DNA of 64,000 nucleotides from the sequence record ON528729; one strand, given 5' to 3'. The notes beneath the pieces are model-generated. The model did not search any database, was not told the origin of the DNA, and saw nothing but the letters and a program-made list of their open reading frames with translations. The translations under genes were made by a program, and so were the position numbers. Each line of letters opens with the position of its first letter. Within the stretch, counting starts at the first letter, position 1. This DNA is from Shigella phage ESh19. Positions 658-52,727 of the stretch are shown here, piece after piece.

Positions 658-1170
658 TTAGATATTAAAGATATTCATAACAGAATCTTTCAAGGCTTCT
701 AAACGCTCCATTACTTCAGATTCTCCATCGGAGTTCGACACTTCCTCTTCTAATCGTGAATCTAAATCTTCCCCGTCAAGATAGCACCAATCGAAGCCAT
801 AAGCAAGAGAAAAGCTATTTAATACTGTATTACCTTCTTTATCTTCTACCTTTGCAAATAGTACATAGCTATTAGCTTCTAAATCCCTTTGCAATTCATC
901 TTGTAAGCTCTTGTAAGCCTCTATAGATGGATTTTCACGGCCTTGTTTAGCATAATCACTCATCAATTGTGAAAGGCTGTAATGCTGTGGAATTGCATAT
1001 TTGTACCCGTTACGCTCTGGATTTTTAAGTTTGATTGTAACCCCGCCTTTGTGCTCATCGGTAAACTTCCAATTTTCCACACAATGGGATGCTTCACAAG
1101 CATTAACAGCTTCATAGATGATGGTGAATTTTTCTTTCTGAACTTCAAAGGTAGCTTCAACGTATGACAT
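658..1170 (-). CDS. hypothetical early protein (170 aa, acidic C-terminus)
   Basis: ORF with cassette-derived SD upstream; no recognisable motif. Confidence 0.55.
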   Translation of the reverse strand: MSYVEATFEVQKEKFTIIYEAVNACEASHCVENWKFTDEHKGGVTIKLKNPERNGYKYAIPQHYSLSQLMSDYAKQGRENPSIEAYKSLQDELQRDLEANSYVLFAKVEDKEGNTVLNSFSLAYGFDWCYLDGEDLDSRLEEEVSNSDGESEVMERLEALKDSVMNIFNI

Positions 1171-1262
1171 TTTTAGATTCTCCAGTTTAGGACTATTGGT
1201 TAGTAAAGCTCTTTATCTGGGGCTTAAGATACTAGCTTTTAAGCCCCATGTAAAGCACTTTA
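1171..1262 (-). promoter_or_regulatory. conserved intergenic cassette, copy B
   Basis: hairpin GGGGCTTAA-loop-TTAAGCCCC (1220-1248) flanked by CATGGGG and CCCCAGATAAAGAGCTTTAC conserved arms. Confidence 0.6.
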
Positions 1263-1520
1263 TTAGATTAAATTGTCAGTTAATGATAAGTGCATTTTAT
1301 AGCCTTTCTTTGTGTAGACATTAGTTCTACCAATTGCTCTTACACCTTTGAAAAGGTCATAGGAACTACGCTTCAGAGTAAGATGCTTATCACATTTCAC
1401 GCCCCATCTTACAGCAGATTCTTTTCCGTTGTCAACCACTTTACCATTTAGTTTTTTAGCAGTTGCGCGAGCGTCATCACGAGATTTTGCAGATACAATG
1501 ATGTTTTTGATAGTAGCCAT
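1263..1520 (-). CDS. hypothetical early protein (85 aa, basic)
   Basis: ORF between cassette copies. Confidence 0.5.
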   Translation of the reverse strand: MATIKNIIVSAKSRDDARATAKKLNGKVVDNGKESAVRWGVKCDKHLTLKRSSYDLFKGVRAIGRTNVYTKKGYKMHLSLTDNLI

Positions 1521-1611
1521 TTTTGATACTCCAGTTTAGGTTGATTGTTTGTAAAGCTCTTTATCTGGGGCTTATCTTATCTAACTATAAACCCCATGTA
1601 AAGGACTTTAT
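1521..1611 (-). promoter_or_regulatory. conserved intergenic cassette, copy C
   Basis: same conserved arms, divergent hairpin core. Confidence 0.6.
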
Positions 1612-1992
1612 TTAGTTAATTTTGAAAACTGTAACGTAGCCGTCACTACCAATTGTTTGAGATACTCCAGCTTTCTCTACATCATACCCCATTTTATCAA
1701 GATGGTACATTGCATCTTCATACCCATATTTTCCGCCTTGATAGCGTCTTTTTTCGCATCGTATCACAGTTTTACCACGTCCTGCAATAGCATTTATGAT
1801 AGCTTTTTCACCGGATAATGTACCGTCAAGCATAGTAGCTTTGTAGTGGTTAATACGGTTACCATTAACATCATACTTAAAATTGTAAGCGTGAACAACA
1901 ATTATTTTTCCTTTGAAGTTTTCTTTCATAGTTTCCTCTAAGATACTACGAAAGTTTTCTTTGTTGATAAATTTAGGCGCACGATATTTCAT
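1612..1992 (-). CDS. hypothetical early protein (126 aa)
   Basis: ORF; ATG 8 nt downstream of GGAGA of cassette D. Confidence 0.55.
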   Translation of the reverse strand: MKYRAPKFINKENFRSILEETMKENFKGKIIVVHAYNFKYDVNGNRINHYKATMLDGTLSGEKAIINAIAGRGKTVIRCEKRRYQGGKYGYEDAMYHLDKMGYDVEKAGVSQTIGSDGYVTVFKIN

Positions 1993-2076
1993 TTCAGATT
2001 CTCCAGTTTAGGATTGTTGGTAAAGCTCTTTATCTGGGGCTTAAGATACTAGCTTTTAAGCCCCATGTAAAGTACT
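1993..2076 (-). promoter_or_regulatory. conserved intergenic cassette, copy D
   Basis: hairpin GGGGCTTAAAAGCTAGTATCTTAAGCCCC plus conserved arms. Confidence 0.6.
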
Positions 2077-2238
2077 TTATGCAATAATTTTTATAAAATC
2101 TTTCATGGTTATTTTATCGCCATTTGTAAGGGCTACGCAAGCGTTACCCATAGCAGATTTATAGAGATAGAAGACTTTACCAATTTTTGGGTATCCGTCT
2201 AAATCTTTGTACTGTATTACATCGTTTTCTTTAATCAT
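2077..2238 (-). CDS. small hypothetical protein (53 aa; below ORF-track cutoff)
   Basis: hand-translated MIKENDVIQYKDLDGYPKIGKVFYLYKSAMGNACVALTNGDKITMKDFIKIIA; SD AAGAAGG 7 nt upstream; fills gap between 2251-2457 gene and cassette D. Confidence 0.35.
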   Translation of the reverse strand: MIKENDVIQYKDLDGYPKIGKVFYLYKSAMGNACVALTNGDKITMKDFIKIIA

Positions 2239-2250
2239 TGTCAAGCCTTC

Positions 2251-2457
2251 TTAAACGTTGTAATAATAAATTGCTGTATGTCTTGTAAACTGTCTTGTAT
2301 GATTTGTCAAGTAACAATCTGACCTGATTGATGTATCAACATATTCGTCAAAATCCTTTTCTGAAATACGTTGCCAAACATCACAAATTAGCATATAGAA
2401 ACGACGCTTATTTGTTTTGTTGTTGTCAACAATCATTAACTCACGTTGATATAACAT
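2251..2457 (-). CDS. hypothetical early protein (68 aa), first gene of operon
   Basis: ORF; upstream partial cassette (2458-2490) supplies the conserved 5'UTR and SD. Confidence 0.5.
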   Translation of the reverse strand: MLYQRELMIVDNNKTNKRRFYMLICDVWQRISEKDFDEYVDTSIRSDCYLTNHTRQFTRHTAIYYYNV

Positions 2458-2507
2458 TTTAGATTCTCCAGTTTAGGATTGTTGGGATGTTTCCCGTTGA
2501 TGCAAAT

Positions 2508-2535
2508 ACTATAAGACTGGATTTATGAAGTCAAC
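2508..2535 (-). promoter_or_regulatory. candidate sigma70-type promoter of the small-gene operon
   Basis: minus strand GTTGAC(T)-N15/16-TATAGT about 50 nt upstream of ATG at 2457. Confidence 0.4.
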
Positions 2536-2708
2536 AAAATTTTTAAAAATATTTTTGATGTTTCGTGAATAGAACGCACGTATGCGGATACACTAAAACA
2601 GGAATCTAGTCAAGAATTATTTTTGAGTTCTCTACAAATTTTTCTCTTGACTTTTGGGAGGAAGGGGAGTAAGAGGGGATGGTGGGGCTGGCTTCCTACA
2701 GCTACCTA

Positions 2709-2934
2709 CCTGCACAATTCGAAAATGAATTTTCCCTTTGGAGTCCAACTGCATCTGCACAAATTGAAAATGAAAAATCCCTTTGGAGTCTAGACCTGCA
2801 CAAATTTGAAATGAATTTTCCCTTTGGAGTTCAGCTAAAGAAATCTGTCCAGAGTTCTATGCAACTATACCTGCACAAATTTAAAATGAAAAAGCCCTCC
2901 TTACCTGAGATTTTAAACTCAAACTTTGGAGGGC
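2709..2934. repeat. degenerate direct-repeat array (4 copies of ~37 bp unit CCTGCACAAATTnGAAAATGAAnnnnnCCCTTTGGAGT)
   Basis: copies start at 2709, 2754, 2795, 2870; the fourth carries a 25 bp insertion; non-coding (indels break frame). Confidence 0.7.
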
Positions 2935-2935
2935 T
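2893..2935 (-). terminator. possible long-loop terminator after macrodomain gene
   Basis: GCCCTCC...GGAGGGC inverted repeat followed on minus strand by T-run; loop is long (25 nt) so weak. Confidence 0.25.
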
Positions 2936-2960
2936 TGTCTATGTCTATGTAGGTGACTTA

Positions 2961-3755
2961 TTAGTTACGTGCTTCAACATAGTTTACGTTTTCATGTGTG
3001 ATATAATCTTCTGCAAACTCTTCTGTAGTCGAATTGATATACACACTTGCATCATCACCAAACGTTACCGCTCTGTGGTGGTGACCTTGTAACGGGTGGG
3101 TAACTTGAGCGTTACTTCGATTGTACTTCTCAACCGGAGGGTAACTGGTGTGTACCTTGCCATTACGCTTCACCTTGAGGGTAACTTTATCCTTGCCTAC
3201 CACAGCAACACCATCAAAATATTGAGGCTCACTGAAGTTCTCCCAACCAGTAACAGGACTAGTCAACTGACTGTACATCTTATCTTCATAGACATACATA
3301 TATACGTCAACATCTTTCATAGTCTGATTAATAATGGACAGCACAGCCATACTATCAAGACCACCAATCCCTGCACAAATCATAGGAAGCCCAACTTTCT
3401 TAAGTTGGTTGACTTTGCAGTAATTATTCAGACGCTGCAAAGCTGCTTCTAAAGCATTGTACCGTGCATCTTTGCCAGTGATAACCTGAGTATAAAGGTT
3501 AGCAATCCGACCCTGCTTAAAACGTGCTACAGAGATGTTACCAAGCATTAGGTGCTTAGGGTTATGATTTTCACCACCTACTGTAGCATAAACCTCAGCG
3601 TCAGTTTCATAAGCTTTTGGGTAGCGTTTAGCAATTGTTGCTGCGATACCTGAACCCATCAAGTTCATGCAGTTACAACCGTGACCAATGATATCAAACT
3701 TCTTACCATCAAAGTCTTTAAAGATATCACCTTTAATAATTTTTACGATACCCAT
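2961..3755 (-). CDS. macrodomain protein, TARG1/DarG-like ADP-ribose hydrolase fold, with extra C-terminal domain
   Basis: KGDIF..DIIGHGCNCMNLMGSGIAATIAKRY matches TARG1-type macrodomain signature (catalytic Lys in KGD, G-rich phosphate loop); start re-set to ATG 3755 (MGIVKII), since track start 3812 overlaps the upstream gene and lacks an SD. Confidence 0.6.
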   Translation of the reverse strand: MGIVKIIKGDIFKDFDGKKFDIIGHGCNCMNLMGSGIAATIAKRYPKAYETDAEVYATVGGENHNPKHLMLGNISVARFKQGRIANLYTQVITGKDARYNALEAALQRLNNYCKVNQLKKVGLPMICAGIGGLDSMAVLSIINQTMKDVDVYMYVYEDKMYSQLTSPVTGWENFSEPQYFDGVAVVGKDKVTLKVKRNGKVHTSYPPVEKYNRSNAQVTHPLQGHHHRAVTFGDDASVYINSTTEEFAEDYITHENVNYVEARN

Positions 3756-3756
3756 A

Positions 3757-3957
3757 TTAGTAATGCTCCCAACGTTCGTTATCTTCAGAGGGTTTAACTC
3801 GGTTACCTTCATGGTCTACCCATAAAGCACCACAGCCTTCACAGATTACTGGCATTGCTGAACCAGCTTCAAACTCTGCTTTTGTAAAGAGACCTTTTAA
3901 GTCTCCTGTATCTTTTCCAAACATCTCAACAGAACACTTAGTGCAGAAATCAGCCAT
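3757..3957 (-). CDS. small zinc-ribbon protein (66 aa)
   Basis: CxxC ... CxxC pairs (CTKCS, CEGCG). Confidence 0.5.
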   Translation of the reverse strand: MADFCTKCSVEMFGKDTGDLKGLFTKAEFEAGSAMPVICEGCGALWVDHEGNRVKPSEDNERWEHY

Positions 3958-4210
3958 TTGAGATTACCTCTTGTAAGAATACTCTGTCACCGTATCTTTC
4001 CTTAATGAGGGTCTTCCAATATCCGAGTTCCTCTCTTAGATAGCCCCTGTCAATATAGTGACAAAAGTCACCAGCCTTAAAGTGGCTATGTGATAGTACA
4101 GAACCTTTATAGATTCGTGAACCAAATGGCATCACCTCATCCCTTCCAACAAATATAGCCCCTGCTAACACTTGACGTGTAACTTTACTTCTTACCAGAA
4201 TTGCTTTCAT
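3950..4210 (-). CDS. hypothetical protein (86 aa)
   Basis: ORF in operon, short overlap with neighbours. Confidence 0.45.
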   Translation of the reverse strand: MKAILVRSKVTRQVLAGAIFVGRDEVMPFGSRIYKGSVLSHSHFKAGDFCHYIDRGYLREELGYWKTLIKERYGDRVFLQEVISNG

Positions 4211-4511
4211 ACATCACCTTTTCAGTTAGCTCAAACAGGTCAACATGTTCGATGCTTTCAATATGGATACCAACTTTTGCATAGCGTTCTTTAACATTCT
4301 CTGCATTAAGCCATATCAGACACCAATGATTCTCTATGGATTCTTCAAGCTTGTCAACACAATCTTTAAAAGATTTCATATCTCCACGAGTGCCAATGAA
4401 TGCAACAACCCCATAGAGAAACTCTTTACCACTGTGACAGACTTGTGCTGTACCAATTTCTTTTTCACCATCTGAAAAGACGGCTACATAATTCTTACCA
4501 TCTAGTTGCAT
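4185..4511 (-). CDS. hypothetical protein (108 aa)
   Basis: ORF in operon. Confidence 0.45.
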   Translation of the reverse strand: MQLDGKNYVAVFSDGEKEIGTAQVCHSGKEFLYGVVAFIGTRGDMKSFKDCVDKLEESIENHWCLIWLNAENVKERYAKVGIHIESIEHVDLFELTEKVMYESNSGKK

Positions 4512-6023: not shown

Positions 6024-6488
6024 TTAACCAAGAACTTTCGCAAGGACATTTGCTGCCATTGTTGAGGCTTTTGAAGCAGCAGCTACGCCAGCCTTAATGG
6101 TATTGTCCTTAATCGCAGAAACCGTTGCAGTATCTGTGAAGAGGTAAGTGGTAGTTTGAGAACCACTTGTAAAGGAAAGCATAAGAGCAGTTTCCAGATT
6201 GAAAGAACGGTAAGGAGCACCGGATTGTACAATCCCTTTTGCACCTAACTCTGAAGCCATACCCATATCATAGATAGTCATCAGATTTTCTTTATGAGCA
6301 GTAGTTGAACCAACACCCTTAACGTGTTTTGTGACATTCAACATGGCACGATACTCACGAATGTTACCATCAGCTTTCACGTTTACTGCACGAAAGATTT
6401 TACCATCGAAATTACTTTTGATAATCTCACGAACTACCTGTGATTTGTTACCGGAAGCATCGATAGCTACTGTAATAATGTTTTGCAT
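6024..6488 (-). CDS. hypothetical protein (154 aa)
   Basis: ORF with terminator downstream. Confidence 0.5.
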   Translation of the reverse strand: MQNIITVAIDASGNKSQVVREIIKSNFDGKIFRAVNVKADGNIREYRAMLNVTKHVKGVGSTTAHKENLMTIYDMGMASELGAKGIVQSGAPYRSFNLETALMLSFTSGSQTTTYLFTDTATVSAIKDNTIKAGVAAASKASTMAANVLAKVLG

Positions 6489-42630: not shown

Positions 42631-42641
42631 ATACAAAAAAA

Positions 42642-42661
42642 GGCTCCTTTTTACGGGAGCC
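42642..42661. terminator. bidirectional terminator at convergence of plus and minus operons
   Basis: GGCTCC-TTTTTAC-GGGAGCC flanked by A7 upstream and T-rich downstream. Confidence 0.6.
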
Positions 42662-42667
42662 TTAGCA

Positions 42668-43322: not shown

Positions 43323-45698
43323 TTATGCAGTTCTTACCCAAGCCATTAATTTAATGTAAGTGTTAAGAACACTGAATGCTGCACCAGAACCAGTTGCACC
43401 AGTGTTACCACTGAATGTGTGGTTGTGAGCACCAATACCTACACCGTGACCGTGAGCACCTACCCAACTTGTTCTCCCTGTCCAAGTTCTGGAAGCATAG
43501 AAGTTAACTGGCGCACCATAAGTGAAGTGAGAACCTGTCCAGCTATGCCCACCTTGGCTACCACTCATTGCAAAAGCACCGTCTGCAACGTAGAACGAGT
43601 TATTATCACTTCTAAACCATCCAAAGTTACCAGAGATTTCCATATTACCTCTGTCATGGTCGTGAGCACCTTGAGCGTCTGTGTACTTAGTGCCATAATC
43701 AAATGTACTTGTTGTTCCAGAGAAGCTATGAGTGTGCGCAGGAATATGACCAACACTTAGAGCCACCGTATCAGAACCACCAAGACCTTTCACATCGGAA
43801 CCATTTGCAGAACCAATTCTAATAGTTCTGTTTGCACCCTCTGTCAAGTAAGTCCAAGTAGTGCCTGGGAAAGCTGTATTTGGGTTGACATTAGAAGCAA
43901 AGAACGTCACAATACCAACTGGATACACTTTTTTAAGGTCTGTAGCATCAGTTACAGCGGAAGCAATACGTTGGTCTACTTCAGCCTTGGTGTAAGCACC
44001 AAGTTCAGAGGGTGTAGGTTTGTCTTGGTCTGTGTAGATTTTAGCCCAAACCTCTTCAAAACCAAATCCATCCCTTGCTGTTCTATAATAGATTCCAGTA
44101 TTCTTGTAGTTAAATTTAAACTGTGCAGTCGGTGTAGATGCACCAACTCCAAGGTACATTTGGTAAACTAAGTGAGTAGACCCACCAGTTGAATTTGTAA
44201 CACTGTACAAACCTGTTTTTGAATTCCAAGCAATACCTGTTGCATCACCAACTTCTGTTCCCGTTCCAGATACACCAGACAACATATATCTTGAGTTTGA
44301 AGCAGATTGTGTGTAGTATCTTGAGTCAAAGTTTGACCAATCGCTTGGTCTTACTTGTCCAACAATATTCACATGTGTATTCACATCTAAATCAGTACCA
44401 ATATTGATTGCCTTTCCTGTTACATCATTGTTAAGTACCACATTGTTTTGACCAGCATCACCAATACCCAACCACCATCTCCTGCTCCCATTAGCATTAT
44501 GTGCAGACATGTAGATTCCAGAGTCTTGTACTGTTGCCTGTAGTCTAAAAGGATTGTCGCTGTCAGTATTGATAGTCTGTGGACTAGTAAAAACGTTTGC
44601 AGCATTAGTTCTTGCAAGAACATTCGTTAAAGAGCTTGGAACGTATCTTGTATCAAAGTTTGCAAAGTCACTTGGTTTTACCTGACCAGTTACATTGATA
44701 GCTTTATTAAATGAAAACTCTGTAGCAATTTTCAAGTTAACATTTGTCATCTGATTTGCTAAAACAATCTCAGACTGCGTACCATCTGGTTGACCTACAT
44801 ACCAAGTTCCTGTCCCAGCACTGTTATAACCACGCATAAATAATGCAGCATTCTCTGTAACCGCTCTTAAGTTAAGTGCATTACTATCTGCAATAACATA
44901 AGTCTTACCATTGAAGTTGTTAACCCCAACAAAGTTATTACTTGCATTAAGTTTTGCAAATCTCTGGTCAGCAGCAGTCTGTGTAAAGAATCTTGCATCA
45001 AGGTTATTCCAGTTATTAGGCTGAACCTGTCCATTGATTTCAAAATTCTTATCAACACTAACAGAGTTTGTGCCAAGAGTCAACGTAGCACCCTTACTAT
45101 TAACTAATGTAACATCAGTACCAGAAGTCAAGTTACCAACTGTGAATCTCAAAGCATTATTTGAATCCCTTGCTTCAATATATGCTCCACCATCTGGTAA
45201 GATACTTTTAAGTGTTAAACCAACACCGTTGATATTAATGATTTGTCTTGCCAAGAAGGTATTTTCAGTTTCCTTCATAGCGTATCTTGCATCATTTTCA
45301 GTATTAGTTCTCATACCTAATTCATTAGGAGATGGTTTATTAAGTGTGTGATAAACTGTTGCAGACCTTGTGGCATCATTTACAGTTAATCTTAAAGCAC
45401 TTGCATTAATTCTAAAGGTCTTGGCAGTGTCACCGAGAATAACCTCAGAAGAACCTGTTGGGTCTAATAAGTCTTTTCCACCGTATCTTAATTTGACGAT
45501 GCCAAGATTCCCTGTCATATCCCCACCAGTTAGTTGTAAGAATCTTTCTAGTTTGAAAGAGGCAAGGAAATTTGCATAGGTCATTTTACGGTCTTCATCA
45601 CCTAGCATATCAGACCTTTTGATAATTCTTAGGTGAAGTAAATCTTCTGAGCGAACTGTATCAATACTGTTTAGCTCACTTAGCTTATATTCAGCCAT
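43323..45698 (-). CDS. tail fibre protein (long), His-rich C-terminal domain
   Basis: GGDMTG fibre motif, three internal ~35 aa repeats (VQPNNWNNLDARF / VKPSDFANFDTRY / VRPSDWSNFDSRY), C-terminal HxH repeats ending AWVRTA. Confidence 0.7.
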   Translation of the reverse strand: MAEYKLSELNSIDTVRSEDLLHLRIIKRSDMLGDEDRKMTYANFLASFKLERFLQLTGGDMTGNLGIVKLRYGGKDLLDPTGSSEVILGDTAKTFRINASALRLTVNDATRSATVYHTLNKPSPNELGMRTNTENDARYAMKETENTFLARQIININGVGLTLKSILPDGGAYIEARDSNNALRFTVGNLTSGTDVTLVNSKGATLTLGTNSVSVDKNFEINGQVQPNNWNNLDARFFTQTAADQRFAKLNASNNFVGVNNFNGKTYVIADSNALNLRAVTENAALFMRGYNSAGTGTWYVGQPDGTQSEIVLANQMTNVNLKIATEFSFNKAINVTGQVKPSDFANFDTRYVPSSLTNVLARTNAANVFTSPQTINTDSDNPFRLQATVQDSGIYMSAHNANGSRRWWLGIGDAGQNNVVLNNDVTGKAINIGTDLDVNTHVNIVGQVRPSDWSNFDSRYYTQSASNSRYMLSGVSGTGTEVGDATGIAWNSKTGLYSVTNSTGGSTHLVYQMYLGVGASTPTAQFKFNYKNTGIYYRTARDGFGFEEVWAKIYTDQDKPTPSELGAYTKAEVDQRIASAVTDATDLKKVYPVGIVTFFASNVNPNTAFPGTTWTYLTEGANRTIRIGSANGSDVKGLGGSDTVALSVGHIPAHTHSFSGTTSTFDYGTKYTDAQGAHDHDRGNMEISGNFGWFRSDNNSFYVADGAFAMSGSQGGHSWTGSHFTYGAPVNFYASRTWTGRTSWVGAHGHGVGIGAHNHTFSGNTGATGSGAAFSVLNTYIKLMAWVRTA

Positions 45699-45706
45699 TT
45701 ATAAAT

Positions 45707-45722
45707 CCTCTTTCTAGGGGCT
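45707..45722 (-). other. hairpin GGGGCU-loop-AGCCCC between fibre genes
   Basis: GGGGCTGTGTAGCCCC; same stem as 8986/13847 hairpins. Confidence 0.4.
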
Positions 45723-45743
45723 GTGTAGCCCCTTATAAAATAA

Positions 45744-46919
45744 TTACGCAGTTCTCTTCCAAACATATACAACATAAGAAGGTTGCTCAATATTAAATGC
45801 TTGTCCAGCACCAAATGCACCAGTTGTACCTGAGTGAGTGTGCTCAGAAGATTGAACTGTCACAGTACCTGAGTGTCCATGTGAACCAATTGCAACGCTG
45901 TGTCCATGTGCTCCAATATACACACTGTGAGAGTGGTTACCACCAACTGAAGAGTTAACGTTGAAGGTATGTGTGTGAACCCCATCAAAGTCTGTATATG
46001 ACGCATTACCAACACCTGCATCAGCCGTTGCCGTAATAGCGTTTACACCACCCCTGTCGGAACCCCTCAATGGAATCCTGTGGCTGTGACTACCAGCACT
46101 GCTTACAGAACCATTAACGTTATGAGCGTGGCTTCCAGAGTCGTTTGTGGCCTTAGAACCATAATCAAAACTTGATGTGCTCTTAGTCCCATAGTCAAAG
46201 CTAGAAATTACTACTGTTGCATTATGGGAGTGTCCACCACCAGTTAGTAATACAGAGTGTGTGTGACTTGGAATGTTATTTTGTGTAAGTGTTACAGTAG
46301 CAGAACCAAATACTGATTCTACAGGTCTTGTATCTGTGTCATAACCAACAAGAGACCTTCCTTTAGAAACTAACTCCCAAGTACCACCACAAAGTAAATA
46401 TGTAGATGGGTTTGCAGGGTTAACTGACAAATGAATAGTACCAATTGGATAGCTATTCTGGATAGCTCTGTATAAAGCATTCACAGCTTTTGCAGTAGCG
46501 TACTTATCAGCATCTTCAGAGTAAGAGTTTGAGTATGTCCAGTTTTGAATATTAGACAAACCTACTTGAATCTTGTTAGTGTTGTGAGGGTTATTCTTGT
46601 CATTAATGTGATTTTGAATAAGGGCATTAACTTCATCACTTGATAGAATATTAAGGTTCTGTCTAGCCTCTTCAACACTAACCACGTCTGACAAGTTATT
46701 AGCAGCCACTAATTGGAGTGCGTTAACAACATTACCAAGTTCTACGTGAACCTTTGTAACACCGTGTGGGTTATTTCTTAAAGATGCGTGTGGAGCAAGT
46801 AATTGCTCAAGTGTGCATCGTTTATCCTCAATACCTTGCTTCAGGTGAAAGATATCACTTAAATCAATCGGTAATGAGGCTTGAGGCAATGCACTAATTT
46901 GAATTTCACCGACTGCCAT
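45744..46919 (-). CDS. tail fibre protein (short), paralogous C-terminal His-rich domain
   Basis: C-terminal HSH/HTH/HGH repeats and ending VWKRTA shared with 43323-45698 product. Confidence 0.7.
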   Translation of the reverse strand: MAVGEIQISALPQASLPIDLSDIFHLKQGIEDKRCTLEQLLAPHASLRNNPHGVTKVHVELGNVVNALQLVAANNLSDVVSVEEARQNLNILSSDEVNALIQNHINDKNNPHNTNKIQVGLSNIQNWTYSNSYSEDADKYATAKAVNALYRAIQNSYPIGTIHLSVNPANPSTYLLCGGTWELVSKGRSLVGYDTDTRPVESVFGSATVTLTQNNIPSHTHSVLLTGGGHSHNATVVISSFDYGTKSTSSFDYGSKATNDSGSHAHNVNGSVSSAGSHSHRIPLRGSDRGGVNAITATADAGVGNASYTDFDGVHTHTFNVNSSVGGNHSHSVYIGAHGHSVAIGSHGHSGTVTVQSSEHTHSGTTGAFGAGQAFNIEQPSYVVYVWKRTA

Positions 46920-46921
46920 TA

Positions 46922-47221
46922 TTAGCTCCCTTTATATTCGTATGTGTAAAGGTTAGTCGTGCTGGTGTGTGCAGTTCCTGTTACTGTGTCAATTAATTCC
47001 CAACCATTGGAAACTAAATCAGGTTGCTCCGTAGCAAATGAACGAACCTCTCCAACCGTACCATTTACTTTGTTAAGCAAATAGTTGATAATATAGTTAA
47101 ACCACTGACGACCCATAGGTTCACCCCTTAATAGGCCAGTGGCTTGAATTTCTGGAGGTGGTAAAACTTTAAGCTGGTTACCATCAGCATCAACTGTATC
47201 TGTAGACCATGAAAGAGACAT
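46922..47221 (-). CDS. hypothetical tail protein (99 aa)
   Basis: ORF between baseplate and fibre genes. Confidence 0.45.
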
Positions 47222-48078
47222 TATGAACTTCCTTCTTGTTGAGATTTATCTTTTCTGCCTTTGACGATTTGGGCGACTTCTGCCATAATCCCATAATCAC
47301 CACCTGCTACTGTTTCTTTACCAGCAATGAAATAGTCGTTGCTATTGTTTGTTTTGCTGACTTTTAAATAATCTTTACTGGTACTTCCACCAGTTTTATC
47401 CACTCTTACATAACCATCTCTTACACCTGCATCTGCAAAACTACCTAATTTGTTTGCTTCTAGAGAGCCACCTGTGTTATTCGTAATAAGACCCTTGTTA
47501 GTGTTTGTTACAAACCAGTTATTGTTCTCATCAGTGATTGCCAGAGATGAATCAGCAACCTCTACAGGAGTCCAAGCAGTACCATTTAAGGTAACATCTC
47601 TAAGGATAACTGCCGAACCAATAGTTGTTGCAGCAATCTTAGAAAGTGTGTATGCTGTATCTAACACGTTATTACGAGTGTTTACACGGACAACGATTCC
47701 ACCAGTCATTGGTGTAATGTGCTCAAAAATCTGACTGAATGATGCGTTGTAAAGGGTCATAACAGCCCTTTGTAAGAAGTTTGGTGTGGTGTCAGAACGT
47801 CTTAAGAAAATTTGAATGTAGAGGATAGCTCTGTAAGTGTCATCATCAGCACCAATAGGTCTAGGGACTTTAATCAAAGCCCCAATGTTATCAAGTTGTG
47901 TGCCAACACCTACACGAATATTTCTTTCAGTATATAACTGGTTACTGATATCCTCTAATAATTGTAACTCATCTGTGATAGATTTCAATAGACTTGTGTA
48001 AATAAACTTATCTTTGAATTGAGTTACAGTTCTTTCGTCCAATGTTTTCTCATAAAAGTTTTCAATCTTTTTAAACAT
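47221..48078 (-). CDS. baseplate protein (P2 gpI-like by synteny)
   Basis: follows J-like gene; start set to ATG 48078 with AAGGAG SD. Confidence 0.45.
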
Positions 48079-48080
48079 TG

Positions 48081-49550
48081 TTACTCCTTGGTAATTGTAT
48101 ACTGTGAGCTTTCCCAAACAGTGTACTGGTCACCATCAATAGTGATTCTTGAAGTTGTGTACTGCCCCTCAGCAGGTGGAATTGCTTGGTTATTTGAAAG
48201 TGCAACCTTAATCTCGTTAATCTCGATACCTTGAATCACATCATAGATATGTCCATAGATTCTGTTAGGGATTACATCGTTACCAACTTTCAACGTTCTA
48301 CCATAGGCATTAATACCTTGAACAATTCTGTCATGAATATCCTGTTCAGGGATGTTAAGAGTTTCTTCATCGTAAAGAGAGTAAGTAACCTTGACAAAAA
48401 CATATTTAGGCATTGGTCTGCTAAAGTAAACATCATGAGGGAGAGAACCTAAGTCATATGCAGTCCCAAAGATTGAACCATATGGGCGAATACCAGCAGG
48501 TTTCGTGTCCCAGATTGCCTGTGCAATATTATCATTCTGACCACCAACTACAACAATCTTAAAAGACTTCGGAGGAAGACCATCAGCGTTTGTTGTCTCA
48601 GTATCATTTTCTACACCAGAAGCATCAGACACACCTTGCACTCTCTTGACAGCAGCTACAATAGCATCCAGAGTACCTACACCAGTAACAGCCAGAGATT
48701 CTAAGTAACGCTGTCTCAGTTCTGTGTCAGTTTCCTCATCACGACCTGTTGTCAAGTCATATCTGTTGAAAACACTATCAAGACCATCTACAGTTGTTTC
48801 AATCTCAATCAAGGTTCCTGCAAGAGTCTGGATAGCTCCAGTTTCATCTGCTACAACGTCACTGATTGAAGTAATCTTTGTAAATGTTAAGAATGTCGTT
48901 GCAGTAACAACCATAGGGTTAGTTCTGGCAATGATATCTCCAGTGTCTTTATAGATTCTTAGAACTGAGCCATCATTAATAACTTCAGCCTTTGCAATAA
49001 TACCACCATTGATAGCATCTGCAAGTTTCTGTAGCAATGTTGTAATGGTATCAGAGCTAGTCGGATGATATGAATACTCAATGTTGTCAATGATAATAAC
49101 ATAGTTTGCATCTGTTCGTAAAGAGTTAACTTCTAAGTTTGCCTCTACACAGTAAGATGGAGTCAGCGTGAAAGTTGACACAGGGTAAAAGATATTACCT
49201 GCTGTGCTTCTTAACCTTGTAGTGGCTGGTACAGGAGCACCAGAATTACCAGTGAACTCAGCTTGACCTCTTGTAGCCTGTGCCACATATCTGTATACAG
49301 CGTTCAAAGCTGTTACATCATCTAAACTGAATCCTTCAGCTTTGTCAATAGTACCACCGTCATAGATTTCTGACAAGATTTCATGAACGTCTGCAAGACC
49401 TCGGCAAACAGAAGCTAAGAATAACCCAAGTTCGCTATCTTCAGAAACATCAAGGTTTGGTGAGATATCTCTATACAGACTTGCTTTAACATCATCCAAG
49501 ATTTCTTGATATCTTTTTGTTTGTAAACCTGTAGTTGTTAATCCAGCCAT
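48081..49550 (-). CDS. baseplate J-like protein
   Basis: [10 protein letters not shown] block typical of baseplate J family; 489 aa. Confidence 0.55.

Positions 49551-49965: not shown

Positions 49966-49966
<1 letters not shown>
49550..49966 (-). CDS. baseplate wedge protein (gp25/gpW-like by size and synteny)
   Basis: 138 aa directly upstream of J-like gene. Confidence 0.45.

Positions 49967-52727
<2,761 letters not shown>

Follow-up and report, generated by a model that had tools for sequence, protein, structure and literature searches.

Two tail fiber proteins encoded by Shigella phage ESh19 (sequence record ON528729) are very probably the side fibers of an Ounavirinae myophage, each ending in a collar and a T4 gp37-type needle of HxH motifs, with the head of the needle carrying out host recognition. 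Homology, the register of the motifs, the module boundaries, and the sharing of a head cassette with other phages were observed directly in the window, the whole 64,000-nucleotide stretch of DNA that was analyzed, and in the sequences compared with it. An earlier note on this DNA had described two paralogous fibers with a histidine-rich C-terminal domain; its observation is confirmed here, and its interpretation is partly supported.

By sequence, the source phage is a Felix O1-like Mooglevirus (Ounavirinae). The DNA is 95 to 98% identical to Mooglevirus genomes, in which the fiber genes are annotated as tail fibers. The two fiber genes are adjacent, and both lie on the minus strand (Table 1). 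The long fiber matched phrog_4277, "tail fiber protein," from end to end, and the short fiber matched phrog_2097 (E, 4e-131). Both proteins are orthologous over their full lengths to the short and long tail fiber (STF and LTF) pair of the Ounavirinae, represented by Bas63 gp26 and gp27 and by Sf14 gp52 and gp53. The 99-residue protein encoded directly upstream is 86% identical to Bas63 gp25 and matched phrog_4141, a family that carries no functional annotation; in the cryo-EM study of Bas63, gp25 is the attachment point of the long fiber on the baseplate wedge (PMC12609058). A 64-residue membrane protein and a putative holin are encoded downstream, and the gene order (wedge, LTF platform, STF, LTF, small membrane proteins) is conserved with the Ounavirinae. 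A scan for promoters and terminators returned counts equal to the shuffle expectation; its sole meaningful-looking match was a bidirectional terminator at 42640-42663, 3' of the holin gene.

TABLE 1 Positions of the fiber genes, their modules, and the neighboring gene in the window
Feature	Position	Strand	Basis or remark
Long tail fiber gene, 791 aa	43323..45698	(-)	ORF; orthologue of Sf14 gp53 and Bas63 LTF gp27
Long fiber aa 1-110, putative N-terminal baseplate-attachment region	45369..45698	(-)	Boundary approximate
Long fiber aa 151-482, three ~110-aa shaft repeats	44253..45248	(-)	Pfam gp37_trimer x3
Long fiber aa 475-586, gp37_C domain	43941..44276	(-)	Similar to phage Mu tail fiber S domain
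Long fiber aa 588-650, collar (T4 gp10/gp12-type)	43749..43937	(-)	Pfam Gp10_C
Long fiber aa 651-765, HxH needle enclosing head	43404..43748	(-)	655 and 679 outgoing; 749 and 758 returning
Long fiber aa 682-748, enlarged aromatic-rich HxH-free head cassette	43455..43655	(-)	Predicted receptor-binding tip
Long fiber aa 766-791, C-terminal return segment	43326..43403	(-)	Ends KLMAWVRTA
Short tail fiber gene, 391 aa	45744..46919	(-)	ORF; orthologue of Sf14 gp52 and Bas63 STF gp26
Short fiber aa 1-145, putative N-terminal attachment region and short shaft	46485..46919	(-)	
Short fiber aa 146-218, collar	46266..46484	(-)	Pfam Gp10_C (E, 5e-17)
Short fiber aa 219-362, HxH needle with 9 motifs	45834..46265	(-)	2XGF (E, 4.2e-25)
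Short fiber aa 281-314, small head	45978-46079	(-)	Inside HxH needle
27-nt tandem repeat in short fiber gene	45873-45929		Encodes two IG(A/S)HGHSV units
Short fiber aa 363-391, C-terminal return segment	45747..45833	(-)	Ends VYVWKRTA
99-aa protein directly upstream of short fiber gene	46922..47221	(-)	Orthologue of Bas63 gp25 "LTF platform"

As first noticed, both fibers carry repeated HxH motifs toward the C terminus and share a W(K/V)RTA ending (...LMAWVRTA in the long fiber and ...VYVWKRTA in the short fiber). The long fiber has four such motifs (HTH655, HDH679, HGH749, and HNH758), and the short fiber has nine (HTH219, HSH230, HAH264, HSH278, HTH315, HSH329, HGH338, HGH347, and HTH360). 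When the last 240 residues were shuffled 20,000 times, the count of the long fiber was reached in 6 shuffles (mean, 0.45) and that of the short fiber in none (mean, 1.41). BLASTP aligned residues 588 to 791 of the long fiber with residues 153 to 391 of the short fiber (30% identity; E, 1e-17), upholding the proposed paralogy of the C-terminal domain, which is also homologous to the trimeric T4 gp37 tip (2XGF). Both BLASTP and a nine-sequence MAFFT alignment that takes in T4 gp37 and lambda Stf placed all four long-fiber motifs opposite short-fiber motifs, and therefore the lack of positional conservation that would have counted against a common domain was not seen. HGH749 and HNH758 cannot each be paired with one particular short-fiber motif, since the 9-residue IGAHxHxV unit occurs as a repeat. 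In the MAFFT alignment, the HxH columns were kept across both fibers, Michonne, Si3, phiEa104, T4 gp37, and lambda Stf. Among 66 homologues, H679, H681, and W787 of the long fiber were invariant and H655, H657, and R789 were at least 90% conserved. The number of HxH units in homologues ranges from 2 to 8. N-terminal of the common domain, BLASTP between the two fibers found nothing significant. The N-terminal and shaft regions had been described as different; the shafts do differ, and the first ~45 residues have in common a weak motif, DL..HL...EDRK.T...LA, whose score was reached in 34 of 2,000 shuffles. Recent gene conversion between the two genes was rejected, their longest common DNA stretch being ~42 nt at 74% identity.

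The same domain relates both fibers to the tip of T4 gp37. All seven T4 HxH motifs were matched in the short fiber, with spacings of 34, 14, 37, 14, 9, and 9 residues compared with 32, 14, 37, 14, 9, and 9 in T4 gp37. The long fiber by itself matched 2XGF with an E value of 6.4e-5, and a profile of its family did so at 2.9e-15. The collars are related to the C-terminal domain of T4 gp10 (2FKK), which was matched by residues 144 to 228 of the short fiber (E, 5e-7) and by the long-fiber family profile (E, 6.7e-6). Laid out on the needle, the motifs number four outgoing and five returning in the short fiber and two outgoing and two returning in the long fiber, all in conserved His columns. The long-fiber return segment aligns with the T4 gp37 C terminus, IVRLA, and a chain that goes back to the collar would fit the conservation of the C-terminal W.R.A segment. 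An AlphaFold2 monomer of the long-fiber tip, built from a 66-sequence alignment, was of moderate quality (pLDDT, 71), with a collar at 86 to 89 for residues 590 to 619 (model residues 11 to 40) and 66 to 68 for residues 620 to 649 and a poorly defined head (42 to 58). Foldseek with this model against the PDB gave weak matches to gp10 and C24 (best, gp10; E, 0.01) and did not find 2XGF, a monomer of an intertwined trimer being a poor probe.

In the T4 gp37 tip, three chains bind iron through their HxH motifs (2XGF; sites modeled as iron, PMC12609058). AlphaFold trimers docked in cryo-EM maps have been published for Sf14 (PMC11821841) and Bas63 (PMC12609058), in which the short fiber is ~430 Å long and the long fiber ~630 Å. 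From homology, we infer metal binding by both ESh19 fibers, and we likewise infer the trimeric state, the identity and number of the metals, and the receptor. Each fiber would be a homotrimer attached to the baseplate through its N terminus, and its end module would join a collar of the gp10/gp12 type to a needle of the gp37 type. Each chain would run outward, form a small distal head, and go back to the collar; because it runs back along the needle, the C-terminal W-x-R-T-A would pack against the collar. Three chains going out and back would make a six-stranded needle, and at each HxH layer they would give six histidines to one axial metal ion (Fe2+ in T4 gp37), the metals riveting the trimer into a stiff rod. 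Counted by motif, as many as 9 ions would sit in the short fiber and 4 in the long fiber; these are upper estimates, since HTH219 and HTH655 mark the passage from collar to needle and T4 lacks an equivalent of HTH360.

The metal could instead be zinc or a mixture, especially at the collar-proximal HTH, although we regard this as unlikely. The T4 short tail fiber, gp12, has a single His-coordinated site that binds zinc, and the first motif of the needle, IP(A/S)HTHS, lies at the end of the collar, a domain common to the gp10/gp12 family. However, the closest solved sequence homologue is gp37, with its modeled iron (2XGF; PMC12609058).

The N-terminal parts of the fibers are built differently. 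Residues 1 to 110 of the long fiber are 90 to 100% conserved among Moogleviruses, and a role of the fiber N terminus in baseplate attachment is known from Bas63 (PMC12609058) and Sf14 (PMC11821841). Three internal repeats of ~35 residues had been described in the long fiber; there are indeed three, but the period is 109 to 115 residues and only a core of ~30 residues, GQV(Q/K/R)P..(W/F).N(L/F)D.R(F/Y), is conserved. An offset scan and MAFFT gave offsets of 109, 115, and 224 residues with conserved cores, and self-BLASTP for internal repeats returned the diagonal alone. Pfam gp37_trimer covered three stretches (E, 2.6e-43; 146 bits; cutoff, 21.7) and was followed by gp37_C (E, 6e-18; 65 bits; cutoff, 22.5), whose region matched the Mu tail fiber S/S' structure (PDB 8JU3; E, 7.8e-22); both families exceeded the Pfam gathering threshold in the long fiber only. 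The third repeat varies very strongly from one relative to another, residues 361 to 450 being only 29 to 66% identical to Sf14. The gp37_C domain is 12 to 13% identical to that of Michonne, and therefore this module has been swapped. Annotation of Si3 with proteins of 453 and 311 residues suggested at first that the Mooglevirus long fiber had arisen by fusion of two Felixounavirus genes; this was rejected, since Bas63 has a single 784-aa gene, and the Si3 split is a frameshift within the core of the third repeat. The short fiber has two NNPHxxxKxxVxLxNxxN repeats, at residues 48 to 66 and 108 to 126 (alignment score, 60; reached in 0 of 2,000 shuffles).

The two fibers had been thought to share a tip and to differ in receptor-binding shafts. 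By homology, the receptor-binding part instead lies within the common C-terminal domain, because the gp37 chain makes its head at the far end of the needle before coming back to the collar. The head segments of the two fibers are unrelated (34 residues in the short fiber and 67 in the long), and relatives are most divergent there. Identity to relatives collapses at residues 691 to 750 of the long fiber and 241 to 330 of the short fiber; compared with Michonne, the heads are 0 to 25% identical and their flanks 70 to 90%. Phage Si3 has two fibers with a near-identical head on collars that are ~30% identical. The long-fiber head is 54 to 73% identical to the gp37 head of the T-even phages ZQ3 and CJY920, the needles being otherwise different, and this cassette stands in place of two HxH motifs that lie next to the head in the long fibers of Michonne, Si3, and Bas63.

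It is quite improbable that specificity is set by shafts or lateral domains (the third gp37_trimer repeat and the Mu S-like domain), with the HxH tip serving as a structural cap only. Relatives differ as much in residues 361 to 450 and 481 to 540 of the long fiber as they do in the head, the Bas63 authors found unexpected variability of the beta-helix repeats and named host recognition as one possible reason (PMC12609058), and the Sf14 authors speculated that the fiber might touch its receptor proximal to the tip (PMC11821841). In T4 gp37, however, the head of the solved homologue contacts the receptor (PMC12609058), the short fiber is nearly invariant in its shaft and strongly variable in its head only, and the long-fiber head moves between phage families as a cassette, as a specificity module would. 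Lateral binding sites may exist in addition, because the third shaft repeat and Mu S-like domain are also hypervariable. The evidence points to the heads, rather than the shafts, as the main specificity determinants. Recognition would fall to the head that the His strands enclose, T4-sized in the short fiber and aromatic-rich in the long, and the conserved His-strand sequences would frame it as an exchangeable cassette. Since the two heads are unrelated, two different surface structures are most likely recognized; the receptors would probably be LPS-core sugars, as in other Ounavirinae. Retention of the His boxes mainly as recombination sites for cassette exchange, with metal coordination secondary or absent, is very doubtful, for although HxH motifs exactly flank the head cassettes in the ESh19 fiber and the T-even gp37 carrying the cassette, vary in number among homologues, and are encoded twice in the 27-nt tandem repeat, their conservation is at the protein level (histidines invariant, codons and middle residue variable), the fiber genes share DNA stretches of at most ~28 to 42 nt (74 to 82% identity), and the histidines bind iron in the solved T4 homologue. 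One role does not preclude the other.

The presence of a gp37-like HxH tip on both Ounavirinae fibers is real but ordinary, having already been published for orthologues. In Bas63, both fibers end in a T4 gp37-like tip composed of collar, HxH needle, and head (Sci Adv 2025, PMC12609058), and the shared-tip finding raises no open biological question. The fibers of the Felixounavirus Bas63 (JohannRWettstein) are 67% (STF gp26) and 50% (LTF gp27) identical to those of ESh19 over the full length, and the gene order is alike; however, they have 7 (STF) and 6 (LTF) HxH motifs compared with 9 and 4, and the ESh19 long-fiber head is another, larger cassette. Cryo-EM of Sf14 revealed two fiber sets folded up along the tail (Commun Biol 2025, PMC11821841); that paper treats HxH for the tail needle only, not for the fibers. 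Sf14 gp52 is 96 to 100% identical to the ESh19 short fiber in every 30-residue bin, and gp53 is 83 to 100% identical to the long fiber outside two patches, residues 361 to 450 (29 to 66%) and part of the head (66%). T4 gp37 shares with ESh19 the collar, the six-stranded His needle, the head, and the (V/K)R(T/L)A ending, and its seven HxH motifs and their spacing are kept in the short fiber. Unlike the ESh19 tip, which is part of a single-protein fiber, it forms the distal quarter of a four-protein fiber and needs gp38; its head sequence is unrelated, and the short fiber has two more HxH motifs and the long fiber three fewer. Lambda Stf and P2-like prophage fibers (Photorhabdus, Erwinia, and Pragia) have the collar, the HxH C-terminal module, and a KLM(G/A)W(Y/V)R.A ending but differ in their N-terminal shafts (Phage_fiber_2 repeats), and lambda Stf is accompanied by Tfa.

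Across the whole 64-kb window, tblastn with T4 gp38, ZQ3 gp38, and lambda Tfa found nothing below an E value of 1, and no gp38/Tfa-type chaperone gene was found beside the fiber genes, which bears on the assembly route and not on the fold. The Sf14 study likewise reports no such homologue (PMC11821841). The gp37 proteins of CJY920 (Tequatrovirus; 73%) and vB_EcoM-ZQ3 (Mosigvirus; 54%) have in common with the long fiber the head cassette HDRGNMEISG.FGWFRSDN..FY.A.GAF...ASR.W.G. The rest of these proteins is T4-like: the collar is a different one, the returning His units are more numerous, and the end is IVRLA. In ZQ3 a 183-aa gp38-type chaperone gene follows gp37. We tentatively propose that the long-fiber head may be a distinct, structurally uncharacterized cassette of ~65 residues, aromatic-rich and metal-free, that replaced two His layers, moved horizontally between the Ounavirinae and some T-even gp37 proteins, and folds in the Ounavirinae without gp38 or Tfa. 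If true, this would make it a portable receptor-binding head, workable in both chaperone-dependent and chaperone-independent scaffolds. Residues 682 to 748 of the long fiber and 281 to 314 of the short fiber are probable host-range determinants, of use in annotation and engineering. Conserved His strands enclose both heads and would therefore be natural swap points for retargeting phages of Shigella, E. coli, and Citrobacter.

The long fibre contains four HxH motifs (HTH655, HDH679, HGH749, and HNH758), and the short fibre contains nine, at residues 219, 230, 264, 278, 315, 329, 338, 347, and 360. When the last 240 residues were shuffled, the observed count was reached in 6 of 20,000 shuffles for the long fibre and in none of 20,000 for the short fibre. 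BLASTP aligned long-fibre residues 588 to 791 with short-fibre residues 153 to 391 (30% identity, E = 1e-17), and no significant match between the two proteins was found N-terminal of these segments. Both by BLASTP and in a MAFFT alignment of nine sequences, every long-fibre HxH lies opposite a short-fibre HxH (4/4); therefore, the histidine motifs are positionally conserved, and the shared HxH-rich C-terminal domain proposed in an earlier note on this DNA is upheld. The conserved W(K/V)RTA terminus that it described can be read from both ORFs, which end in AWVRTA (long) and VWKRTA (short). In the family alignment of 66 sequences, H679, H681, and W787 are invariant, and conservation reaches at least 90% at H655, H657, and R789. 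Thus, judged from this alignment, the W-x-R-x-A ending is a family hallmark; T4 gp37 and lambda Stf end in IVRLA.

Both C-termini match the Pfam family Gp10_C, which represents the C-terminal domain of gp10 from the T4 baseplate. Among solved structures, short-fibre residues 144 to 228 matched T4 gp10, and residues 146 to 363 matched the receptor-binding tip of T4 gp37 (2XGF; E = 4.2e-25). The long fibre alone matched 2XGF with an E value of 6.4e-5, and a long-fibre family profile built from 66 sequences matched 2XGF (E = 2.9e-15) and gp10 (E about 7e-6). All seven HxH motifs of the T4 gp37 needle (883, 915, 929, 966, 980, 989, and 998) have short-fibre matches, and their spacing is 32, 14, 37, 14, 9, and 9 residues in T4 versus 34, 14, 37, 14, 9, and 9 in the short fibre. 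The short fibre exceeds T4 by two motifs, 219 and 360, both at the collar end. These sequence matches support the common tip fold suggested previously. An AF2 monomer model (pLDDT 71; head, 42 to 58) and a Foldseek search performed with it were uninformative.

By homology to T4 gp37, whose tip architecture is summarized in the Bas63 paper (PMC12609058), we infer the trimer state, chain topology, and metal binding of both fibres. Each fibre would be a homotrimer in which the chain runs outward past the collar, makes a small distal head that would contact the receptor, and returns to form a six-stranded needle. The six histidines of each HxH layer would hold one axial metal ion (iron in T4), giving up to nine ions in the short fibre and four in the long fibre. 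Among Ounavirinae fibres, short fibres have 6 to 9 His layers and long fibres have 4 to 6; across 120 homologues the HxH number ranges from 2 to 8. A 27-nt tandem repeat in the short-fibre gene (window 45873-45929, minus strand; 2.1 copies, 80% match) encodes consecutive IG(A/S)HGHSV His units and shows how needle length can change in 9-aa steps. Elsewhere in the tail, the 213-aa central spike/needle protein (window 49966-50607, minus strand) ends in NEHTHHYYW. The Sf14 and Bas63 papers (PMC11821841 and PMC12609058) describe such an end as the iron-binding HxH site that is conserved in the puncturing needle; by their account, it would give the tail a second HxH metal site, independent of those in the fibres.

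The heads of the two fibres are unrelated in sequence. The short-fibre head (residues 281 to 314) is 34 aa long and T4-sized, and the long-fibre head (residues 682 to 748) is 67 aa long, rich in aromatics, and without HxH. The greatest divergence among relatives falls in the head regions: identity to phage Michonne is 0 to 20% in long-fibre residues 691 to 750 and 23 to 38% in short-fibre residues 241 to 330 versus 70 to 96% in the flanks. Therefore, the previous view of a common tip with different receptor-binding shafts needs adjusting. The tip scaffold is indeed common, but the functional assignment was partly misplaced, since the difference lies in the head of the tip. The long-fibre shaft varies too, in the third repeat (residues 361 to 450) and in a Mu-S-like domain (residues 481 to 540; PDB 8JU3, E = 7.8e-22), and a lateral contribution to receptor binding is possible. 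An LPS-core receptor has been reported or proposed for other Ounavirinae, and by analogy the receptor here is probably an LPS-core structure.

The long-fibre head is a discrete cassette, HDRGNMEISG.FGWFRSDN..FY.A.GAF...ASRTW, and is not simply a degraded needle. This cassette (~65 aa) also lies between His motifs in gp37 of Tequatrovirus CJY920 (73% identity) and Mosigvirus ZQ3 (54%), in both of which the collar and returning strands resemble those of T4 rather than those of the window long fibre. From these sequences, it looks like a receptor-binding head exchanged across phage families. In ZQ3, a gp38-type chaperone gene follows the fibre gene; no gp38 or Tfa homologue was found in the 64-kb window.

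The two fibres of Salmonella phage Si3 (L008 3563-4729 and 6188-7123) have almost the same head sequence and flanking His strands (VGGRYGGDSIGGK.RVQVSGTEQVSS), whereas identity between their collars is ~30%. Homogenisation of paralogous tips is therefore possible; the pattern suggests gene conversion, and both Si3 fibres probably bind the same receptor. The ESh19 tips are not homogenised, and no DNA evidence of recent conversion between the two genes was found. Annotation splits the Si3 long fibre into two proteins of 453 and 311 aa. A two-gene fibre was rejected, since the split (L008 about 6100-6200) results from a frameshift in the third shaft repeat, within its conserved core, where DFSNLDARYYTQS continues in another frame; the frameshift is likely a sequencing error or mutation.

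The long fibre does contain three internal repeats (Pfam gp37_trimer, three stretches, E = 2.6e-43), but their period is 109 to 115 aa rather than the ~35 aa reported earlier, which approximates only the ~30-aa conserved core, GQV(Q/K/R)P..(W/F).N(L/F)D.R(F/Y). The N-terminal regions differ, as claimed, except that the extreme N-termini share a weak motif, DL..HL...EDRK.T...LA (score reached by 34/2000 shuffles), in keeping with the baseplate-binding domain of Bas63 that is reported to be structurally conserved (PMC12609058). The N-terminal half of the short fibre also carries two NNPHxxxKxxVxLxNxxN copies absent from the earlier note (residues 48 to 66 and 108 to 126; window 46542-46778, minus strand; alignment score reached by 0/2000 shuffles), similar to repeats often seen in the shafts of P2- and lambda-type fibres.

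The adjoining fibre genes, 45 nt apart on the same strand, close a baseplate gene block and are followed by genes for two small membrane proteins, of which one corresponds to the putative holin of relatives. The upstream 99-aa protein is 86% identical to Bas63 gp25, a trimeric, T4 gp9-like "LTF platform" that anchors the long fibre (cryo-EM, PMC12609058). Within the spacer (45699-45743, minus strand), a GC-rich hairpin with a perfect 6-bp stem, GGGGCT-ACAC-AGCCCC, lacks a T-run and closely precedes the ribosome-binding site of the long fibre; it could act in mRNA processing or stability or in translational coupling. A bidirectional terminator-like hairpin at 42640-42663 (AAGGCTCC...GGAGCCTT, T-runs on both strands) separates the thymidylate synthase gene from the convergent holin/fibre operon.

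Coordinates of the fibre locus and of gp37 genes carrying the head cassette
Feature	Location	Strand	Remarks
Long fibre gene	43323..45698	-	ORF, 791 aa
Short fibre gene	45744..46919	-	ORF, 391 aa
99-aa protein	46922..47221	-	Between wedge protein and short fibre; phrog_4141, no PHROGs function
Second wedge protein	47221..48117		Upstream of fibres
Baseplate_J wedge protein	48081..49550		Upstream of fibres
gp37 with head cassette	L010 1307-4447		ZQ3 DNA
gp37 with head cassette	L011 about 1142-4417		CJY920 DNA

The window shares 98% DNA identity with Citrobacter phage BSwM KMM2 and 95 to 96% with Shigella phages Sf13-Sf19 (Mooglevirus, Ounavirinae; Felix O1-like myophages); the annotation of these genomes lists both genes as tail fibre proteins. 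Sf14 gp52 (391 aa) and gp53 (792 aa) have been placed on the virion, with gp10-like and gp37-like features noted and HxH discussed only for the tail needle (PMC11821841). For Bas63 (Felixounavirus), the cryo-EM paper describes a T4 gp37-like C-terminal tip with collar, HxH needle, and head in both STF gp26, which has seven di-histidine motifs, and LTF gp27, which has six (PMC12609058); the regular expression used on the window fibres reproduced these counts. Full-length identities of 67% (short) and 50% (long) mark the Bas63 proteins as orthologues. Given these descriptions, the observation is real but of low interest: the shared gp37-type HxH tip is already known biology for near-identical proteins.
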